The notes under the pieces are model-generated. The model had not been told where the DNA came from. It saw only the letters and a list, made by a program, of their open reading frames with translations, and made no database searches. Positions 7,994 through 39,276 of a stretch of 64,000 nucleotides of DNA are shown here, piece after piece. Within the stretch, counting starts at the first letter, position 1; every line of letters starts with the position of its first letter. This stretch comes from Escherichia coli (GTDB taxonomy: Bacteria > Pseudomonadota > Gammaproteobacteria > Enterobacterales > Enterobacteriaceae): assembly GCF_016903815.1 (NCBI RefSeq), contig NZ_CP069973.1, one strand, 5' to 3'. A program made the position numbers and the translations under genes.

Positions 7994-9251
7994 CGCTTCT
8001 CCTCGCGTCAATCACTTCCATGACATGTGCGACCGTGTGGAACGAACCACACACCAGCACGGTATCTTCCGCTTTAGCGTCCGCCATTGCGGCATCCCAT
8101 GCCTGCGCCACGCTATCAAATGATTTGCCGTTACCCAAATGCTCAAGCAGTTGTTCTGCCGTGGCACCGCGCGGCCCTTCCAGTGGCGCACAATACCAGT
8201 CATCAACCACGCTTTTCAACCAGGCCAGAGTTCCGGCAATATCTTTATCATGTAGCATACCGATAACCGCCAGCACGCGCCCGTTTTTCGGTAGCGCTTT
8301 CATACGCCCGGTGAGATATTCCGCCGCATGTGGATTATGCGCGACATCAAAAATAACGCGTGGTGACTCGCTCACAATCTGGAAACGTCCCGGCAAAATT
8401 GCGTTGGCAATCCCGTCGCGAATGGCATTTTCACTGACCTCCAGCCCGCTGGCACGCAGTGCCGCCAGCGCCGTTGCGGCATTCGGTTGCGGGACAAGCG
8501 GCAACGGCAGATTTTCCAGCGTGCCGTGAGCATCGCTAAACGCCCAGTCATGATCGGTGACGGAATAGTTCCACTCAACGCCCCGACGTTGTAACAGTGC
8601 ACTTTTTTCCTGCGCCACATCAGCAATGGTAGAAGGCATTTCCGGCTCACCGACAATTGCCGGTTTTTCGCTGCGGAAGATGCCTGCTTTCTCGCGACCA
8701 ATGCTTTCGCGATCTGGCCCCAGCCAGTCGGTATGATCCAGCGCAATGCTGGTTACTACCGCAACATCGGCATCGACAATATTGGTTGCGTCCAGACGAC
8801 CGCCCAGCCCTACTTCCAGAATCACCACGTCAAGTTGTGCCTGTTTGAACAGCCACAACGCCGACAGCGTACCGTACTCGAAATAGGTCAGGGAAATATC
8901 ACCGCGTGCCGATTCAATCTCCGCAAAAGAGGCGGTGTGGGCCGATTCCGGCAATTCCTGCCCCTGCACACGTACGCGCTCGGTATAACGCACCAGATGC
9001 GGTGAACTGTAGACGCCCACTTTGTACCCTGCCGCCATCAGAATCGACTCCAGCGTACGGCAGGTGGTGCCTTTGCCATTCGTACCCGCAACGGTAAACA
9101 CAAATGGCGCTGGTTTCAGAACGCCAAGACGCGCCGCGACCTGGCTCACGCGCTCAAGGCCGAGATCGATAGTTTTACTGTGCAGGTTTTCCAGATAAGA
9201 AAGCCACGAAGCCAGAGGCGACGCGGCTTGAGGAGTGCGTTTGATAATCAT
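7983..9251 (-). CDS. folC: Dihydrofolate synthase / folylpolyglutamate synthase
   Basis: 422-aa ORF with Mur-ligase-like P-loop (AGTNGKGT) between accD and dedD. Confidence 0.93.
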   Translation of the reverse strand: MIIKRTPQAASPLASWLSYLENLHSKTIDLGLERVSQVAARLGVLKPAPFVFTVAGTNGKGTTCRTLESILMAAGYKVGVYSSPHLVRYTERVRVQGQELPESAHTASFAEIESARGDISLTYFEYGTLSALWLFKQAQLDVVILEVGLGGRLDATNIVDADVAVVTSIALDHTDWLGPDRESIGREKAGIFRSEKPAIVGEPEMPSTIADVAQEKSALLQRRGVEWNYSVTDHDWAFSDAHGTLENLPLPLVPQPNAATALAALRASGLEVSENAIRDGIANAILPGRFQIVSESPRVIFDVAHNPHAAEYLTGRMKALPKNGRVLAVIGMLHDKDIAGTLAWLKSVVDDWYCAPLEGPRGATAEQLLEHLGNGKSFDSVAQAWDAAMADAKAEDTVLVCGSFHTVAHVMEVIDARRSGGK

Positions 9252-9320
9252 GGTATCCGCTGATTCGTTACGGTGAGAATAGCAAAAGGGCAGAGCCAGT
9301 GGCCCTGCCCTTATCAGTTA

Positions 9321-24860: not shown

Positions 24861-25412
24861 ATGAAAAAGAAAACAACACTTAGCGAGGAGGACCAGGCTC
24901 TGTTTCGCCAGTTGATGGCGGGGACTCGCAAGATTAAGCAGGACACGATTGTCCACCGACCGCAGCGTAAGAAAATCAGCGAAGTGCCGGTGAAACGGTT
25001 GATTCAGGAGCAGGCCGATGCCAGCCATTATTTTTCCGATGAATTTCAGCCGTTATTGAATACCGAAGGTCCGGTGAAATATGTTCGCCCGGATGTAAGC
25101 CATTTTGAGGCGAAGAAGTTACGCCGTGGCGATTATTCACCGGAGCTGTTTTTGGATTTGCACGGTTTGACGCAGCTGCAAGCCAAGCAGGAGTTAGGCG
25201 CATTGATTGCCGCCTGTCGCCGCGAACATGTGTTTTGTGCCTGCGTGATGCATGGTCATGGGAAGCATATTTTGAAGCAGCAAACGCCGCTGTGGCTGGC
25301 GCAACATCCGCATGTGATGGCATTTCACCAGGCACCAAAAGAGTACGGTGGTGATGCGGCATTGCTGGTGTTGATTGAAGTGGATGAGTGGTTGCCGCCG
25401 GAATTACCGTGA
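24861..25412 (+). CDS. smrB: Smr-domain ribosome rescue endonuclease
   Basis: 183-aa ORF with C-terminal Smr domain (LDLHGLT...), divergent from prmB. Confidence 0.88.
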
Positions 25413-25413
25413 A

Positions 25414-25468
25414 TGCTGGCATCGAATGCCTGATAAGACGCTTCAGCGTCGCATCAGGCATCAGTGCA
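25414..25468. repeat. REP element
   Basis: gcctgataagacgcttcagcgtcgcatcaggc palindrome between smrB and yfcO. Confidence 0.65.
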
Positions 25469-25481
25469 CAACGACGAGCTA

Positions 25482-26360
25482 CTACAGCATATTCAGTACG
25501 TACTGGAATCGACAGGTAGAATCAATAGGTTGCCGCGAGGTGGTATCCACGCGAAGCACCATATCATGAAGCTCTTTGTCGGTAATGGGGTGACGATTTG
25601 GTGTTACCGTCACTTTGGCATTGTCACAGCCCGATGAGGTGAAGGTGAGCATCTGCGACACCCAACGACAATAAGCACCACGATCGTCAGTATCACCAAA
25701 TTTGCTGCCGTCACACAGTTTGCCGTCTTTCATCAGGTAGGTGGAGAGCGTTTTTTCAATTATCCCGCCGGTAGACTGGAGCGCTAACGTCTTATCATGC
25801 ACAACCCGACTTTCATTCCAGGAGACATCATAAGGCCCTAACGGTATAGGTGGACAAGAAGAGTTACTGACTGTGCGTCCGGAATAGGTTCCCGGAGCAG
25901 GATCAATAAGATCAATGCTATCTGCATGTGTCGATACCAGCCACGGGCAGCCATGAACGCTGGAGTCTTCCTTCCAGACTTCCATTCGTATTTCATAACA
26001 AGTCCACATCGTCCTTTGCGCACGGCTGTCATACTCTGCAAGCCCCGGACAAGATGATTGTGATATCGCTGTCATCGATATGACTTTTAATGATGGTGCA
26101 GGGCCAGGTCCCGTCCAGCTTTTCAAAGGTATCCATCCAGTGATTAAACCGGTGTTATTTGGTGTCTCATAAACACCGTGATTGACGCTATCGGGGGTAA
26201 GAACATCAAGATAATAAGTTATCTTCGTAGAATAGCTTGCATACCCTATCGGTGTATACATTGTTGCAACAATGACATTCGCCTGAACTGCTGTACTGAA
26301 GAAAAGTGATATCAGCAGGCCCAAAATCCAGCGCATTATTTTCATCTTAAATATACTCAA
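25482..26360 (-). CDS. yfcO: Fimbrial operon-associated secreted protein YfcO
   Basis: 292-aa signal-peptide ORF at the distal end of the yfc fimbrial operon; exact start uncertain. Confidence 0.75.
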   Translation of the reverse strand: MSIFKMKIMRWILGLLISLFFSTAVQANVIVATMYTPIGYASYSTKITYYLDVLTPDSVNHGVYETPNNTGLITGWIPLKSWTGPGPAPSLKVISMTAISQSSCPGLAEYDSRAQRTMWTCYEIRMEVWKEDSSVHGCPWLVSTHADSIDLIDPAPGTYSGRTVSNSSCPPIPLGPYDVSWNESRVVHDKTLALQSTGGIIEKTLSTYLMKDGKLCDGSKFGDTDDRGAYCRWVSQMLTFTSSGCDNAKVTVTPNRHPITDKELHDMVLRVDTTSRQPIDSTCRFQYVLNML

Positions 26361-26892
26361 ACGTTGCGGTTAACTGGGCGGTAAAATTACCAGGTGTTAC
26401 ATCACGCCCCTCTTTTGCCTGTAACCATGCTCTGAAATTAAGACTGTTATTGCCATCATTCAGCACAAAGGTCACTCCCGTCGTGTTATTAATAGCAACA
26501 GCAGTACCATCAGTAGTTTCCATACCAATGCCTACGCCCTGTGCACCAGAGGTATCATCCAGAGCCAGAAATCCCGGTTGCCCACTGTCTTCTGTTCCGG
26601 TCAGAGTAACTTTTACGCTGTACTGCGCTGGCCCACGGCAATCTTTCAGGCGAAAAACCACCGGTACACGATCGGACTGACCGCGCACCATCAAATCTTT
26701 GTGGCTAATATTCGCAAACTGTACCTCTGCCAACGTTCCAGCCTGTTCCACCGGAGTACAGGTTTTGCTCATCAGGTTGCCGTAAAAATGCAAATTATTA
26801 GCTGCCAGTGCTGAATGACTCGCCAGCACCAGCACACCGCCCAACAGAAAGGTTTGCACCCTGATACATTGATATTTCTTCAGTTTGTTCAT
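26347..26892 (-). CDS. yfcP: Fimbrial subunit-like protein
   Basis: 181-aa signal-peptide ORF with fimbrial subunit C-terminal beta-strand (ATFEYI). Confidence 0.8.
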   Translation of the reverse strand: MNKLKKYQCIRVQTFLLGGVLVLASHSALAANNLHFYGNLMSKTCTPVEQAGTLAEVQFANISHKDLMVRGQSDRVPVVFRLKDCRGPAQYSVKVTLTGTEDSGQPGFLALDDTSGAQGVGIGMETTDGTAVAINNTTGVTFVLNDGNNSLNFRAWLQAKEGRDVTPGNFTAQLTATFEYI

Positions 26893-27368
26893 TGATAATC
26901 CACCTGCAATGTGGCGTAAGCGGAAAAGTTACCGTCAGTCAGCGTGGCATCGGAAGCTTTTACAGGTGCGGCCTTCAACTTCGGCAGGTTGGCGGGTGTC
27001 ACGTTAAGCGGGGTATTCAGCTTAAAGGGCTGACCGTTTTGCTGGAGTTCAATCCCTAATCCCGTGACATCCGTCTGAATCGCCGCATCGTTATAGTTGG
27101 TCTGTGTACCGGTCCAGGTTAGCGTCATTACCCAGGCGTCATCGGTAATATCAGGGTCACACGTTATCTGGTACGGAACATCTTTGCGGTAATTAACCCC
27201 GTCAATATTGTCGATAATGACGTCGATAAACTGGATCTCAATATCATCACCATTGCTGACGGTGCAGACCGGAGGTTCGATCAGCGTACCCGTGAAGGTG
27301 ATATCTTCCGGTGCGGCATGCGTTATGGTGCAAAAAGCGGATAATAAAATTAACGAGAGTCGTTTCAT
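26889..27368 (-). CDS. yfcQ: Fimbrial minor subunit-like protein
   Basis: 159-aa signal-peptide ORF ending ...LQVDYQ, paralogous to yfcR. Confidence 0.8.
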   Translation of the reverse strand: MKRLSLILLSAFCTITHAAPEDITFTGTLIEPPVCTVSNGDDIEIQFIDVIIDNIDGVNYRKDVPYQITCDPDITDDAWVMTLTWTGTQTNYNDAAIQTDVTGLGIELQQNGQPFKLNTPLNVTPANLPKLKAAPVKASDATLTDGNFSAYATLQVDYQ

Positions 27369-27856
27369 TGGTAATCCACCACCATTGTCATGCTGGCGTT
27401 AAACTGTGCGCCTGTCAGCGTCACGCCATTCTGTTTGACTGGCACTGCTTTTAGTTGTGGCTGGCTACTGACGCTAAATGGAGTCCAGGTATTGTCGCCA
27501 ATCGCAAACAGAGAGTTATCTGCTGCATTTTCAATACGAATGCCAAACCCGGTAATTCCCGTGCTTAACACCGTTTCGCCATTGATCGTGGTGGTTGTGC
27601 CCTTAAACTGCATCTGAAGGTCATCGCTCAGGCTATTGGCACAGTTCAGGGTATAACCTGCATCTTTGCGATATTCAGTACCATTGATTTTTTTGATGAT
27701 CACATCACCAAAATCGACGTTACTGCCTTTTACGGTACAAGGAGGTGGTGGGTCTACCAGTACGCGCAATGTCAATGGCACACTTTTCGTTTCACCGGCA
27801 AGAGCACTGCCCGTAAGCAGCACTCCTCCCAGCCCGGCCAAAAGTAGTCGTTTCAT
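27365..27856 (-). CDS. yfcR: Fimbrial minor subunit-like protein
   Basis: 163-aa signal-peptide ORF ending ...MVVDYQ. Confidence 0.8.
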   Translation of the reverse strand: MKRLLLAGLGGVLLTGSALAGETKSVPLTLRVLVDPPPPCTVKGSNVDFGDVIIKKINGTEYRKDAGYTLNCANSLSDDLQMQFKGTTTTINGETVLSTGITGFGIRIENAADNSLFAIGDNTWTPFSVSSQPQLKAVPVKQNGVTLTGAQFNASMTMVVDYQ

Positions 27857-27871
27857 CTCACACTCCCGGCC

Positions 27872-28621
27872 TCAGCCTTTGCGGCTCTGCTCTTCATCAA
27901 CCTGGCAACTGTTACCGTTGCAGGTGAAAAAGAGCGGCATCCGAGCGCCATAGTCGTTGACATAGGTCAGTACCGGCACACTCCCCATCTTCACATTCAG
28001 CGGTGCAGAGGTTTTCGGCGACATCACTATTGGCGAGAAACCGGCTGCCGGATTGCCATTTTTCTGTGCGCTGGCATTACTGAAAATGACGTAATACGGC
28101 GTCGGGTTATTGACAGTAAATTCCTGACCGTTGCGGGTTAAGGTCACTTTATGCTGCCACGGGTTTTGCGTGGTGTTTTTTTCCAGAGCTTTCGGTCGCC
28201 AGAAAAGTTTGATACGCGTCTGAAGAGCGATTTGTAGCGTGTTGGATTTGTTCGATTTCGGCGGAATTTCGCGCACGTTGAAATAGAACATCGATTCCCG
28301 ATCGGCAGGTAATTTATGAATATCCGGCAGGCCCTGAATTTTAACCTGGCCATTCATCATTGCTTCAATGCGCTGTACAGGCGGCAATACCGCCAGCGGC
28401 GAGCTGATCTTGACGCCCTTTTCATCTTCAATCCAGCTTTGCGCCAGATAAGGCAGTTTGGGGTCGTTATTACGCAGCGTCACACTGATAGATTTATCGC
28501 TTTCATTAAAAATCAGGCGAGTACGATCGGGCGTTACTGACGCCTGGGTAGAAAAACTTACCGTTGCTGCCAGTAACGACAGTACCGTTGTCAATGTTTT
28601 GGCAGAGAGATATTTAGTCAT
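27872..28621 (-). CDS. yfcS: Periplasmic fimbrial chaperone (PapD-like)
   Basis: 249-aa signal-peptide ORF with PapD-like chaperone features. Confidence 0.85.
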   Translation of the reverse strand: MTKYLSAKTLTTVLSLLAATVSFSTQASVTPDRTRLIFNESDKSISVTLRNNDPKLPYLAQSWIEDEKGVKISSPLAVLPPVQRIEAMMNGQVKIQGLPDIHKLPADRESMFYFNVREIPPKSNKSNTLQIALQTRIKLFWRPKALEKNTTQNPWQHKVTLTRNGQEFTVNNPTPYYVIFSNASAQKNGNPAAGFSPIVMSPKTSAPLNVKMGSVPVLTYVNDYGARMPLFFTCNGNSCQVDEEQSRKG

Positions 28622-28640
28622 GGATCATTCCTTAATCACG

Positions 28641-31292
28641 TTATTGGTTCGATGAAACAGACATCGGCGGTTCCATTGGTGTCACCTGTTGTGTCTGCTC
28701 CTGAATGACGGGTTGAATATCATGCGGTATGACGGGAGAACTTCCCCCCTTTTGCTGGCATGGCAACAACAAGCCATTGAACAGGTCATTCGGTAACGGG
28801 TCTGGCAGGCTGATATCGCAGTGAGATTCACCCTCCCAGAAAACGGTCATATGTTCACCCGGTTTAACGCCTGCCAGATAAACATTACCTTCGTCATCAA
28901 CCAACCCTACTTGTTGTTGATTATCGTTTTTCACTTCCGCCCCAAATGGCGGATGGCTGCCATCCTGCAAGCGCAGCACTGCCATCGCCTTCTCACCGCT
29001 GATTACCGCAAATTTACGGTAGCCAATAGCGCCTTCCGTCAGCGTTGCCTGAACCACTGATTTTGTAGCTTCAGCGTTTTCCGGCAGTTTGTTCAAATCG
29101 ATATAAGCCTGGTTGCGGTAGTAATCATTAACATCTGCCACCACCGCTTTGCCGAACATGTTGGTATAAACGGCGGAACCATTACCTTCAACCGGCACAT
29201 TAGCAACGCCATCAGCGTCGATTAACAGACGTGTACCGCCCATGTTTTGTGTACGATGCAGTGCCCCGCCATGAGCGGTCAGCGTTGCCCCGCCCTGTAA
29301 AGAGATCCCTGCTGAGGTGTATTGCCCTTCATGGTAGTTGGCACTGAGATCCACTTTTGCCAGAGTACCATCGTGGCTGTAGTAGCCATCCACGCTGCTG
29401 TGGTTTTCGCTGGTTCCGGCGCTTAACGTGTAGTGGCTGGCGTCATCAATGCGGTGATACAGACTCACCTGATTGCTGTCGGCACCGCTGCCATAGTTGC
29501 CGTTGTAACTGATGGTGCTGTTGTCGCCCCACGGCAAACTTAAGGACAGATAAACACCCTTGTCAGCACTTTTATCGTATTCGTAGCGATAACCGGTCAG
29601 AGAAACGCTCAGGTTGCGAAGGCTTCCTAAATTAAAATAATGAGAAAGCATCATGTTGTAGTTGGTCTGATCCTGGCGATCCCAGTAGGTATGGTGGGAA
29701 TAGTTGAGATAGACCGAAACGCGCGCATCCGTGAAGTTCTGGTTATAGGTGACCGTATACATCTCTTTGTCGTTACCGGTGCGCGCCCGGTCGTCGTCGT
29801 TCGCATCCAGATACTCGCTCATGGTCATGTAGTTTTTTTCAGAGAAGCGGTATCCAGCAAACGTCACCCGACTGTTGAGTTCATCAAAATCTTTGGCATA
29901 GCTGACGCGATAAGAGTTGCCGTCCAGCGTTTTGTTGCCATACACGCTGTTATCGTCGAGTTGAACACGAGAGTGAGTGACATCAAACGCTAACGCGCCT
30001 AGCAGCGCCAGGTCACGACCGAGGCCCAGCGCCGCCGACTGGTAGTTTTCATCGGCTAACGCACCGCCGTAGAGCGACCAGCCATTGGCAATCCCCCAGG
30101 ATGCCTCGCCGCCCGAGAAGAAGCTACCTGCAACCTGATGGTCCCAGTTTTGTGGACGCCCCATTGTCACTTTGTAACGCACCTGGCCGGGGCGAGTCAG
30201 GAACGGCATGGACGCCGTGCTGACGTCGTATTCCTGTACCTGGCCGTTTTGTTCTTCAATGCGGACATGCAGCGTGCCAGAGACGGAATCGCCAATATCC
30301 TGGATGCGGAATGGACCTGCGGGTACCTGGGTTTCGTAAATGACACGGCCCATTTGGGTTACGGTCACTTTAGCGGTAGTGTGTGCAACACCTGAAATAT
30401 CGGGGGCGTAGCCGCGCAGGTTTGGCGGTAACATTTGATCATCGGTACTGATGCTGCCGCCAATGTAACTGAAGCCATCAAAAATATCGGAGTTGAGATA
30501 ATCTTCGCCCAGCGAAAGTTTGGCTTTTAATGACGGCAAGGCGCGCCAGGCGTAGTAACGACTCCACTCCCAGTTTTTTTGCGTACCGCTATCGTCAGTG
30601 TCGCCGTCATCGTTACTGCGGGTATGCTGATAATCGCTCTGCCAGTCAGCTCGTAAGCGCCACGGCCCAACGTTAACGCCGACCGTACCATTACCGCAGA
30701 TGTCGTTAGTGTCATCACCCCCATTTTCATGCCGGGTTTGCGCGTTGATACTGTAATCGGCAATAAGCCCAGGGATACCGTCATCCCAGCGCGAAGGCGG
30801 ATCCCACTCGCTGTCGGTATATTCCAGATAAGCCTGCGGTACAGAAACAAGGAGTGCAGACTGGCCTAAATCGCCGCTAATTTCTGTACCTGCTAAAAGT
30901 GCCGTATTCAGACACTGACCATCGCGGATCCATTGCAAATTCTTTGCAATATCTTCCTTCAGACCAAACTGGGCAACCAGCTCTGGCGATAAGCAGGCAT
31001 ATGATTTATTCGGATCGTTTTCAGTTGCGTACCAGTAGATATCGTAGTCGTCAGGTAACGGCTGATTATTTACATGAACGCGTAAGTTATATTTTCCCGG
31101 TTCTACATAGCCTTTTTGCGAAAAACGGCCCAAATCAATTTTGGTATTGCCTTTTAAATCAAGAAATCGGCCATCAAACTGAATGGTATCGTCTGCCAGG
31201 GCATTAAATGGACTTCCAGAAATTGCCAGAGCAATCCACCACGAAAGCCCCCGTAAACGGAGAAAAGAATGTTCTGGCATCGGCGTATCCAT
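28641..31292 (-). CDS. yfcU: Fimbrial outer-membrane usher, intact
   Basis: Single uninterrupted 883-aa usher ORF with signal peptide; corresponds to the K-12 locus where the usher is split into pseudogene fragments. Confidence 0.85.
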   Translation of the reverse strand: MDTPMPEHSFLRLRGLSWWIALAISGSPFNALADDTIQFDGRFLDLKGNTKIDLGRFSQKGYVEPGKYNLRVHVNNQPLPDDYDIYWYATENDPNKSYACLSPELVAQFGLKEDIAKNLQWIRDGQCLNTALLAGTEISGDLGQSALLVSVPQAYLEYTDSEWDPPSRWDDGIPGLIADYSINAQTRHENGGDDTNDICGNGTVGVNVGPWRLRADWQSDYQHTRSNDDGDTDDSGTQKNWEWSRYYAWRALPSLKAKLSLGEDYLNSDIFDGFSYIGGSISTDDQMLPPNLRGYAPDISGVAHTTAKVTVTQMGRVIYETQVPAGPFRIQDIGDSVSGTLHVRIEEQNGQVQEYDVSTASMPFLTRPGQVRYKVTMGRPQNWDHQVAGSFFSGGEASWGIANGWSLYGGALADENYQSAALGLGRDLALLGALAFDVTHSRVQLDDNSVYGNKTLDGNSYRVSYAKDFDELNSRVTFAGYRFSEKNYMTMSEYLDANDDDRARTGNDKEMYTVTYNQNFTDARVSVYLNYSHHTYWDRQDQTNYNMMLSHYFNLGSLRNLSVSLTGYRYEYDKSADKGVYLSLSLPWGDNSTISYNGNYGSGADSNQVSLYHRIDDASHYTLSAGTSENHSSVDGYYSHDGTLAKVDLSANYHEGQYTSAGISLQGGATLTAHGGALHRTQNMGGTRLLIDADGVANVPVEGNGSAVYTNMFGKAVVADVNDYYRNQAYIDLNKLPENAEATKSVVQATLTEGAIGYRKFAVISGEKAMAVLRLQDGSHPPFGAEVKNDNQQQVGLVDDEGNVYLAGVKPGEHMTVFWEGESHCDISLPDPLPNDLFNGLLLPCQQKGGSSPVIPHDIQPVIQEQTQQVTPMEPPMSVSSNQ

Positions 31293-31363
31293 CCATGATT
31301 TTTTATAATTTAGTTATTTGGTAGTTATAAACCCCATAACTTTGCAGCTATGGGGGAAATACA

Positions 31364-31930
31364 TTAGAGATACGTGATCTGGAACGTCGTCAGCGTTTCA
31401 AACGGTGCCGGTGTTGGTGTTACAGCATCCGTTTCACCCACTAACCATGCTTTAAAGTTCAGAGTTTGTTTAGGCTTGCCTTTTCCCGTTGAACTGTCCT
31501 TCACGATAGGTTGCTTAATCTCTGCTCCCAGTGCATAACCTGTACCGTGCTGGTCACCGATAACCAGGCTAACGTTTGGAATTTCAGTTCCATTATCCAT
31601 GTTAGACAGAGAATAGTTATCTGCGTTAGTGGAGTACGGATTACCGGTGAATGTGGTAGCCATTGTCGTTTCTGTATTGAAATTACAGTCCTGTAAACGA
31701 ATCTGGAAATCTTTTGGTGTGGTTGTTTTGCCGCCGGTTAAAGAACCCGTACCGATGCTGCCCATATCCACTTCCAGTTTATGATCGTCAGGAACAATTG
31801 AGCACGGGGAGTCTTCAATTGTGCCGTAAAATCTCACTGTACCGTTGTTCCCTGCGGCAACGACTGATGCTGAAGTCAGCGCCCCCATGAGCATTGCCGT
31901 GGCAACTGCTGCTTTTACAAACTTACTCAT
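31364..31930 (-). CDS. yfcV: Major fimbrial subunit
   Basis: 188-aa signal-peptide ORF ending ...FQITYL; first gene of the yfc operon. Confidence 0.85.
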   Translation of the reverse strand: MSKFVKAAVATAMLMGALTSASVVAAGNNGTVRFYGTIEDSPCSIVPDDHKLEVDMGSIGTGSLTGGKTTTPKDFQIRLQDCNFNTETTMATTFTGNPYSTNADNYSLSNMDNGTEIPNVSLVIGDQHGTGYALGAEIKQPIVKDSSTGKGKPKQTLNFKAWLVGETDAVTPTPAPFETLTTFQITYL

Positions 31931-32540
31931 TATTTGTCCTTAAATCATAAATAATTAGAATATAAGCCAACTGAAATATTGACGTAGAGCTTCTTCAATT
32001 TTTACAGCGACTTTTAAGCAGCCAATGAACAGATTTTCAGCTCCTGAAAAAACAGGTTCCTTGATATAATATTCTTTGGCGTGCCGAACATGTTGATATT
32101 TTAATATGACTGATGCAATTTAAATTTTCTAACATTCAAAGTTAGAAATACTTAATTAATGGACGGGGATAATAATTACTGAAATTTTTCATCTCAGTTA
32201 TGAAGAATGAGTTCAAAAAAACGGCAAATGCAAAAACTCAGTGAATAAATCAAAGTCAAAAACAATCACATGGCAATGACTATCTTGTGATATTAATTTC
32301 GCAACGATATAATATTAAAACACTATAATTAATATAAAATCAAGACCCAATAATATTTTTCACTTTAGTCATTATTTACCTAAAAATGCTTCCAGAAAAA
32401 TAATTTATGAATAAAAGTAAATTCTCTTTCAATATGTAAATTTTTACAAATAAAAGCGTCATGCCGTATAAAATAAAGACCATTCGATCACAAGCGGATC
32501 ATTGTTAGTACAATAAGATTGCATAAATTCAACATTGCCA

Positions 32541-32580
32541 GAAAAAAATAAAGGCCCGATAGATTACACCAGCGGGCCTT
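32541..32580 (-). terminator. Rho-independent terminator downstream of sixA
   Basis: Stem aaggcccg (32551-58) / cgggcctt (32573-80); on the minus strand it is followed by UUUAUUUUUUU. Confidence 0.7.
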
Positions 32581-32591
32581 GTGCATGCGTA

Positions 32592-33077
32592 TTAAATCGC
32601 TTTTGCCATCTTCAGATTACACGGGCTCATCTGCCAGTTGAATGTGCCGTTTCCGCTTTCATCAAGCGTTACGCTGGCAATGGCCGAGGTGGTAAACATA
32701 GGCGGCGTTTCGCCCGGACATAACTCAGCAACCAGATACCCGACTAAGGGTAAGTGGGAGATCACCAGTACCGAAGCAACACCTTCATTGGTCAACGCCT
32801 GTAAATAGGCACTGACCAGACCAACATCGCCGCAGGGCGTTAACTCCGGCAGAACTTCTGCACTGGAAGGCAGGTTCAGACAATCCCCTACTTCTTCCAG
32901 TGTTTGCTCGGCTCGCAGGAACGGGCTCACCAGAACGCGTTCGATTTCCACTTTTTGACCTTTCAGCCAGTTCGCCATCAGGCGAGATTCGTCACAACCG
33001 TTAGTAGTCAGAGGACGAACCGAATCACTGGCGGCATCGAGGGCTGCGTCGCCGTGACGCATGATAAAAACTTGCAT
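32592..33077 (-). CDS. sixA: Phosphohistidine phosphatase SixA
   Basis: 161-aa ORF starting MQVFIMRHGDA (RHG catalytic motif). Confidence 0.92.
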   Translation of the reverse strand: MQVFIMRHGDAALDAASDSVRPLTTNGCDESRLMANWLKGQKVEIERVLVSPFLRAEQTLEEVGDCLNLPSSAEVLPELTPCGDVGLVSAYLQALTNEGVASVLVISHLPLVGYLVAELCPGETPPMFTTSAIASVTLDESGNGTFNWQMSPCNLKMAKAI

Positions 33078-38911: not shown

Positions 38912-39276
38912 TAACGCGTTCGCCTGGATAAAGTCACCAGCTATGCAGGTGACTTTAACTCCCCCACTTCACCGAAAGTAGTTTCCTCATTGCTTGCCTC
39001 CTGAGTTTTGCAAACAGCCTGATGGCAGCTTGCCCTTTCAAATCAGTAAGTGGTATCCACAGACAAACCTGAAGGGAAACGCATATTTTCAGGCGTTCTG
39101 CTCGTCCTTCTCAAAGAGTTTACTTTTCTGCATTTCCAGGATACTCAACCTCCCTGGCTATTGTGCGCTCATACACTCAAATTAAAGATAGGCTCTAAAT
39201 AAATGAGCGTTTTTTGATAGTCTATTTTATTAGGTAATATATATTTGTAACAAATCAATCAACATGGAATAAAATC

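Follow-up and report, generated by a model that had tools for sequence, protein, structure and literature searches.

The yfc chaperone-usher fimbrial operon of Escherichia coli is preceded by several hundred base pairs of AT-rich DNA with no long open reading frame (ORF), and the question is whether this DNA controls the operon, encodes a small RNA or is mostly filler. A sequence-only reading had placed the region at 31931-32540, and had taken it for a fimbrial promoter silenced by nucleoid proteins in front of a cryptic operon, with room for a small RNA. We examined the locus in a 64,000-nucleotide (64-kb) stretch of E. coli DNA, hereafter the window, and we describe its anatomy, its base composition, the density and positional conservation of its promoter-like sites, and its allele structure. 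The source segment is 100% identical to E. coli strain 7/2, whose RefSeq annotation was used for gene calls.

Limits and base composition of the spacer

The region lies between two genes on the minus strand:

31364-31930, minus strand: yfcV, major fimbrial subunit (188 aa) and first gene of the yfc operon (ORF list; 'fimbrial protein' in the RefSeq annotation of strain 7/2)
32592-33077, minus strand: sixA, phosphohistidine phosphatase, a conserved core gene (ORF list; RefSeq annotation of strain 7/2; Pfam His_Phos_1)

The yfcV product matches the Pfam family Fimbrial (PF00419, E = 4e-18). The true yfcV/sixA spacer is 31931-32591 (661 bp), and it most likely serves as the control region of the yfc operon. 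The start given earlier is correct, while the earlier end at 32540 is too short, leaving out only the terminator of sixA:

32540-32580, minus strand: intrinsic terminator of sixA, with a hairpin at 32551-32580 (AAGGCCCG...CGGGCCTT) followed by TATTTTTTTCT on the minus strand (read from the sequence)

This hairpin starts directly 3′ of the sixA stop codon (32592-32594), has a predicted RNA folding energy of -20.4 kcal/mol (z = -2.3), and is found at the same place in every spacer allele with a different sequence each time. A simple scan for intrinsic terminators found none inside the spacer, and it missed the sixA hairpin because the stem-loop is long or interrupted.

The GC content of the spacer is 0.292, compared to 0.496 for the whole window. 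In 200-bp windows it ranges from 0.245 to 0.335 within the spacer and is about 0.5 in the flanks, and the lowest-GC 661-bp stretch of the entire 64 kb falls in the yfcV/sixA spacer. A/T tracts of at least 4 nt occur at 30 per kb, compared to 10 per kb in the window, and TpA is twice as frequent. The description of a strongly AT-rich region upstream of the yfc operon is therefore confirmed, and its AT content exceeds the genome average by a wide margin across hundreds of base pairs.

The absence of ORFs has a simpler origin. The longest ORF inside the spacer has 35 codons, and a 62-codon ORF with a TTG start (32535-32723, plus strand) overlaps just the last 6 bases of 31931-32540, so the statement that the region lacks ORFs of 60 codons or more holds. 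However, when the spacer is shuffled with its composition kept, 84% of the resulting sequences have no such ORF either, compared to 20% of 661-mers of uniform composition. The absence is not beyond chance, and it follows from the AT-rich composition alone.

Spacer alleles and the yfc cassette

We found that the spacer exists as several deeply diverged types. Of 5426 complete E. coli genomes, 633, strain 042 among them, carry the window type at 95.9-100% identity; 3072 carry the K-12/B1 type, and 1206, including ATCC 11775 and Nissle, a third type. The O157-type spacer matches that of K-12 at 83.5% identity over just 24% of its length; 430 genomes show 80-90% identity to the K-12 spacer and are probably of the O157 type. 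Other types are carried by strain E69, Escherichia sp. MOD1-EC7003, E. whittamii and Pseudocitrobacter, or come from gut metagenomes, and O157:H7 and Escherichia sp. E1V33 appear to share an allele. Spacers of different types are 47-69% identical, and closely related pairs are 86-99% identical. The window and K-12 spacers are about 54% identical, and a word-11 blastn search at E ≤ 1e-5 does not connect the two types. Across ten full-length spacers, from the sixA stop codon to the yfcV ATG, length stays at roughly 570-690 bp and GC content at 0.27-0.325. Since these quantities hold steady while identity falls to 47-69%, it is the properties of the spacer that are conserved and not its sequence.

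The divergence extends through the operon. In a three-way 19-kb alignment, the yfc operon and its spacer (about 25380-32590) form a single divergent cassette, with 40-82% identity between types compared to 93-100% in the flanking core genes, and at least seven deeply diverged alleles of this cassette exist. Its right edge is the sixA stop codon: identity to K-12 rises from 0.40 to 0.98 across 32540-32740. Consequently, even the sixA terminator differs between types. Published substitution rates show the same pattern at the gene level (yfcV dN 0.128 and dS 0.597 vs 0.006 and 0.083 for sixA; PMC4720273 Table S2). The least alignable part of the spacer is its distal portion, where column identity between alleles is 29-47% and AT content is highest:

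32351-32540, no strand: distal hypervariable AT-rich segment (GC 0.245-0.26), hardly alignable between alleles

We compared ORFs of at least 12 codons across seven alleles, and no ORF of the window allele belongs to a conserved set. An antisense ORF of 49-51 aa common to K-12, O157 and E. whittamii sits in conserved DNA and is absent from the window allele. Pfam searches with the small spacer ORFs returned no match, and ORF comparison together with Pfam gave no sign that the distal spacer once encoded a papI/papB-like regulator.

A conserved cluster of overlapping promoter-like sites

Promoter scans and allele alignment identified a conserved block some 375-390 bp 5′ of the yfcV ATG:

32285-32350, both strands: central conserved sigma-70 promoter cluster
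32285-32313, plus strand: promoter-like site, TTGTGA (32285-32290), 17-bp spacer, TATAAT (32308-32313)
32338-32309, minus strand: promoter-like site, -10 TATTAT (32314-32309) with TTTATA (32338-32333)
32350-32322, minus strand: promoter-like site, TTGGGT (32350-32345), 17-bp spacer, TATAGT (32327-32322)

A further site lies close to yfcV:

31934-31961, plus strand: promoter-like site in the proximal block, TTGTCC (31934-31939), 16-bp spacer, TAGAAT (31956-31961) (matrix scan)

In a position-weight scan of both strands, the central plus-strand site is the second-best sigma-70 match of the 64 kb and the proximal plus-strand site the tenth-best, placing two of the window's ten best matches inside the spacer. 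The central plus-strand site keeps its position in all seven alleles, even though its -35 hexamer varies among them (TTGTGA, TTGAGA, TTGTAA or TTGGCA) and the -35 element is not preserved in the L031-type allele; a site in the sense direction is retained in six of the seven, and the position of the proximal site in all seven. The window's TTGGGT-17-TATAGT aligns with TTGAAA-17-TATAGT of K-12, which has been proposed as the K-12 yfcV promoter under an RpoD-holoenzyme SELEX peak (PMC3946193).

Promoter-like sites are exceptionally dense on both strands and overlap one another (59 per kb in the spacer, compared to 7.8 per kb in the window), and the spacer ranks first among all 661-bp windows. This density is largely driven by composition, as the spacer holds 39 such sites compared to 26.4 ± 5.9 in shuffles (z about 2).

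The -10 elements on opposite strands, TATAAT and TATTAT, overlap with a 1-bp offset, and the predicted -35 elements stand 16-18 bp away. From these predictions, the central block reads as a bidirectional promoter in all alleles, with its stronger arm facing away from yfcV. Bidirectional sigma-70 promoters with overlapping -10 elements and start sites 18 bp apart have been described (Warman et al.; bioRxiv 10.1101/2020.01.31.928960), and they are reported to be especially common in horizontally acquired DNA to which H-NS binds. The predicted cluster in the window shares their 1-bp-offset geometry. It differs from them in having no gene on its divergent side, and its stronger predicted arm points away from the sole downstream operon. 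According to PMC12825309, polymerase can bind overlapping -10 elements in just one orientation at once. On that basis, the stronger divergent arm could divert polymerase from the yfc direction.

Probable silencing by H-NS

The corresponding K-12 spacer is already catalogued. It is promoter island 2453647_489 (yfcV/sixA), one of 78 listed (PMC3661553 Table 1) and marked as H-NS-bound by two ChIP studies (PMC3661553). It also binds RNA polymerase in vitro, with an RpoD-holoenzyme genomic SELEX peak that carries an HNS mark (PMC3946193) and an RpoS-holoenzyme SELEX peak (PMC5493296), and both yfcV and sixA are flagged TRUE for H-NS binding at the gene level in ChIP data from SE11, SE15 and K-12 (PMC4720273 Table S2). 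The yfc operon has been described as functional but cryptic and repressed by H-NS (Korea 2010, in the form in which PMC3559732 cites it). H-NS as the sole cause of promoter-island silence is disputed (PMC11661796). Overproduction of TosR (PapB family) in CFT073 raises yfcV expression, as does overproduction of BolA in K-12.

The island and the window spacer occupy the same locus between the same flanking genes (Panyukov & Ozoline 2013, PMC3661553), have similar dimensions (680 bp and GC 0.32 in K-12; 661 bp and GC about 0.29-0.30 in the window allele) and are alike in their extreme promoter-like density on both strands. Binding of H-NS and RNA polymerase is documented in the literature for the K-12-type allele only. 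A search of the literature on strains carrying the window allele, such as 042, found no experimental data; PMC3923964 and PMC10301672 gave no usable start-site or ChIP results for this allele, PMC12266141 does not mention yfc, and we found no mapped start site for any allele of the locus. Because the window allele is only about 54% identical to that of K-12, silencing is carried over to it through shared properties and not through sequence. The high-affinity H-NS motif TCGATAAATT is not enriched in the spacer beyond composition (4 occurrences vs 2.1 ± 1.4).

Based on these comparisons, we consider it likely that the window spacer is an H-NS-type silenced regulatory region. The proposal of a nucleoid-protein-silenced fimbrial promoter was thus right in kind, with an H-NS-bound counterpart in K-12, but it reaches the diverged window allele by analogy of properties only. 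The word 'cryptic' need not apply to this strain, whose yfc usher is intact (883 aa), unlike the K-12 pseudogene.

Related systems place the spacer among known regulatory regions. In extraintestinal pathogenic strains, the yad operon has been shown to be under H-NS repression and to respond to host cues: it is de-repressed when hns is mutated, and serum induces it (PMC13245861). Its yadN/folK region resembles that of yfc: both belong to core-associated cryptic chaperone-usher operons with a long AT-rich spacer, neither has a dedicated regulator gene or is phase-variable, and the yad spacer is an H-NS-bound promoter island. The yad operon lies at a different locus.

The regulatory regions of pap and fim are likewise long, AT-rich H-NS targets upstream of chaperone-usher operons. 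They differ from the window spacer, which lacks a conserved GATC pair and papI/papB or recombinase genes, and which has the same orientation in all 633 genomes that carry it.

Along the minus strand, the spacer consists of the sixA terminator, about 190 bp of hypervariable AT-rich DNA, the promoter cluster, a long AT-rich leader or proximal segment with a few conserved blocks, and the ribosome binding site. The most likely mechanism is as follows. AT-rich, A-tract-rich DNA would nucleate a filament of H-NS (and StpA) over the promoter cluster. RNA polymerase could still bind the spacer, while productive yfc transcription would be off under laboratory conditions. With overlapping -10 elements and a stronger -35/-10 pair that points away from yfcV, bound polymerase would be biased towards a non-productive upstream transcript. 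Expression of yfc would then need counter-silencing, through temperature or host cues or through regulators such as the PapB-family TosR or BolA. Silencing in the window allele, the actual start sites and promoter competition are inferred.

Conserved blocks in the proximal region

The best-conserved part of the spacer is the region nearest yfcV:

31931-31975, minus strand: conserved proximal block with the Shine-Dalgarno sequence AAGGAC at 31936-31941 (allele alignments)
32017-32031, minus strand: conserved block, arm 2, TGTTCATTGGCTGCT, complementary to arm 1 (RNAalifold, pair counts)
32070-32085, minus strand: conserved block, arm 1, GGCACGCCAAAGAATA, complementary to arm 2 (RNAalifold, pair counts)

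From about 31975 to the Shine-Dalgarno sequence and the ATG, the alleles are almost invariant, Pseudocitrobacter included. A TATATT hexamer about 30 nt upstream of the ATG scores as a -10-like element in five of seven alleles, the window allele not among them, and a proximal yfcV promoter at this hexamer is a possible alternative start. Compared to K-12, the window spacer has a 12-nt insertion after arm 2, and the K-12 TATAAA hexamer is replaced. A second RNAalifold hairpin, over the Shine-Dalgarno sequence and the AUG, was rejected as weak, with all pairs A-U or G-U and zero covariation.

The two arms might pair as a helix in the leader of the mRNA, or might equally serve as DNA, either as two inverted 10-bp sites (CCAWWGAATA) for a protein or as an element of a proximal promoter. 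Readings as an RcsAB box or an IHF-like site gave poor, non-conserved matches and were dropped.

The first of these possibilities leads to a distinct explanation of the spacer, in which it would act as a structured cis-acting leader. A 5′ UTR of about 370 nt would start at about 32302-32315 (transcription from the central cluster gives a leader of about 370-385 nt), the arm helix would control yfcV translation or mRNA stability, and such control could act alongside H-NS silencing. RNAalifold finds the arm pairing in seven alleles that are otherwise about 50% identical. Over 13 sequences, 89.4% of cells are paired compared to 84.3 ± 1.5 in shuffles (none of 500 reaches the observed value), the covariation score is 0.151 compared to 0.086 in shuffles (1 of 500), and controls with the partner slid along the sequence pair just 17-38%; this shuffle test is known to be lenient with related sequences. 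Three of the 13 arm pairs change on both sides, a stepwise compensatory series is visible (C-G in E69, G.G in E2348/69 and G-C in the window allele), and one A.C position is substituted only by G-C, G.U or A-U. The arms stand 33 to 42 nt apart depending on the allele, a variation that suits an RNA loop better than phased DNA sites, and when the putative leader is folded as a single sequence (z = -2.9), the arm helix is part of the structure. However, six of the 13 pairs never vary and so carry no information, the outer stem is broken without compensation in the three deepest alleles (B2, Pseudocitrobacter and L031-type), single-base variants disrupt pairs in L120 and in L032/L056, and neither arm is present in the B2-like metagenomic contig L026. 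Arm 2 abuts a TATAAA -10-like hexamer in most alleles, the window allele being an exception, and the arms may therefore be promoter DNA instead of RNA. No Rfam family matches. We regard the leader helix as an unlikely, though not far-fetched, account of the spacer.

Small RNA, phase switch or filler

Another possible reading is that the spacer holds an independent noncoding RNA gene: the near-consensus plus-strand promoter at 32285-32313 would drive an RNA of at least about 260 nt over 32320-32580. This RNA would lie antisense to the 3′ end of sixA and its terminator, and would regulate sixA or yfc. The rank of this promoter (second of the 64 kb), the retention of its position through changes of -35 hexamer, and the reported abundance of divergent promoters in H-NS-bound, horizontally acquired DNA are in keeping with such a gene. 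Yet the segment that would be transcribed is the least conserved of the spacer, the plus strand has no intrinsic terminator (the sixA hairpin lacks a U-tract on that strand), and the -35 element is lost in the L031-type allele; the antisense promoter is also explicable as the mirror image of the sense -10 element. Rfam searches of four alleles, at a permissive threshold for the window allele and at the gathering threshold for the K-12, B2 and O157 loci, returned nothing in the spacer. The spacer thus does not combine a promoter with a terminator, conservation or a known family, and poorly conserved downstream DNA, no terminator and no Rfam family together make a discrete small RNA unlikely. 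The suggestion that the region holds one finds no backing here, and we judge the RNA-gene reading improbable. A phase-variation switch, either by Pap-type Dam/Lrp methylation or by a fimS-type invertible element, could be imagined from the usher, which we take to be classed with Pap-like fimbriae, from two GATC sites 11 bp apart in the window allele, and from an imperfect 22-nt inverted repeat flanking 368 bp (32135-32502). Against the methylation switch, GATC counts are at chance (about 2 per spacer, zero in the B2 allele), no GATC pair is conserved, a Pap-type switch having two such sites about 100 bp apart, and no papI-, papB- or recombinase-like ORF lies in or beside the spacer. Against inversion, the repeat is only 77% complementary, in AT-rich DNA, and all 633 window-allele genomes are collinear in a single piece, so that the inverted form was not seen. 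A switch of either kind is hardly credible.

The remaining account holds that the spacer is mostly unconstrained filler, with only a short proximal promoter and the sixA terminator functional and its AT-richness due to mutation bias or relaxed selection. Alleles indeed have very little identity in the segments 32086-32284 and 32351-32540, and within the window-type family 38% of columns vary in the first of these. Composition explains the absence of ORFs, the motif counts and much of the density of promoter-like sites. But unconstrained DNA would be expected to shrink, whereas the length and GC ranges given above are kept in all alleles and related species examined; discrete conserved blocks lie far from the start codon, and RNA polymerase and H-NS bind the K-12 spacer. 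We therefore give filler little credence, and return to the H-NS-silenced regulatory spacer as the preferred reading. A more specific version of it, in which a device kept through at least seven ancient alleles and into Pseudocitrobacter (the diverting bidirectional promoter together with the CCAWWGAATA pair, as leader helix or as regulator-binding sites) sets the counter-silencing threshold, is a tentative idea that we hold to be on the unlikely side.

Implications for Yfc regulation and yfcV typing

This feature was already known for the yfcV/sixA locus, and the finding is in that sense ordinary: it closes as a catalogued H-NS-type regulatory spacer. Regulatory results obtained in K-12 or CFT073 should not be assumed for strains that carry the window allele. 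The blocks that survive about 50% turnover, at 32285-32350, 32070-32085, 32017-32031 and the ribosome binding site region, are targets for mutagenesis of the Yfc switch.

Nearly every E. coli strain has Yfc fimbriae, and yfcV serves as a marker for uropathogenic strains. Because the spacer and the operon together make up a single, sharply bounded allelic cassette, a PCR for the 'presence of yfcV' probably reads out the allele that a strain carries, and not whether the gene is present.

Variants of the yfcV/sixA spacer and probable contaminant contigs

We found two sequences that depart from the common spacer alleles. In strain XJW9B277 (H91, NZ_CP068041.1 3339661-3341117), an IS1A insertion interrupts a K-12-type spacer; the regulatory region has been naturally disrupted or, possibly, activated. 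A metagenome contig with a coverage of 1.4 (L026, ERZ772969.21994) carries a B2-like spacer in which a segment of about 100 nt, including both complementary blocks of the putative yfcV leader, has given way to unrelated sequence between retained flanks; it could be a genuine variant or an assembly chimera.

Two further matches carry the names of other organisms. The first (L006, JAIJJM010000567.1), 2.2 kb long, belongs to a metagenome-assembled genome assigned to Collinsella sp. and is 99.7-100% identical to the E. coli yfcV/sixA segment of the window. The second (L011, NZ_VIRG01000022.1) is a contig of only 428 bp and low coverage, assigned to Stappia sp. BW2, that encodes a YfcV relative with 62% identity. 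The two contigs look like E. coli DNA contaminating the respective assemblies.

An ORF antisense to the yfcV leader

An ORF of 49-51 codons runs antisense to the yfcV leader in the K-12, O157 and E. whittamii alleles:

about 9170-9320 of the K-12 locus (L002), plus strand of that locus: antisense ORF, with equivalents in the O157:H7 (L004) and E. whittamii (L009) loci

Its protein identity among these three alleles is 39-86%. MOD1-EC7003 and E69 have a shorter version of the ORF, and the window allele lacks it. The ORF probably exists only as a by-product of the conservation of the DNA.

Other AT-rich regions of the window

A second AT-rich region, at 38926-40200, has a GC content of 0.32-0.36 and a high density of promoter-like sites, and spans a yfdF-related gene annotated as 'hypothetical protein'. 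Identity to K-12 is only about 50% over part of the region (39539-39938), and the B2-type genome lacks the entire segment. In K-12, the yfdF/mlaA spacer, like the K-12 yfcV/sixA spacer, is a listed promoter island. A third AT-rich stretch, at 44076-45500 (GC 0.30-0.35), contains the site that, in the whole window, best matches the sigma-70 consensus:

44986-44958, minus strand: TTGACT-17-TATGAT

The yfc operon and its spacer as a divergent cassette

The yfc operon and its upstream spacer form a single divergent-allele cassette (25380-32590), within which identity between E. coli types is 40-82%, compared to 93-100% in the flanking core genes. Its edges are sharp, one lying in the smrB/yfcO spacer and the other at the sixA stop codon, and divergence is greatest in the distal spacer and in yfcO, the adhesin gene (about 25920-26280).

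O157:H7 and Escherichia sp. E1V33 (L010), a separate species representative in the genome collection used, have spacers with 99% identity. In addition, the spacer of EPEC strain E2348/69 (L013), a member of phylogroup B2, is of the window type and not of the B2 type. Both observations suggest that the yfc cassette has been transferred between lineages via recombination.

The usher gene (28641-31292) is intact in the window strain and encodes 883 amino acids, whereas K-12 yfcU is an annotated pseudogene with an internal stop. Judging from this intact reading frame, the yfc operon may be functional in the window strain.
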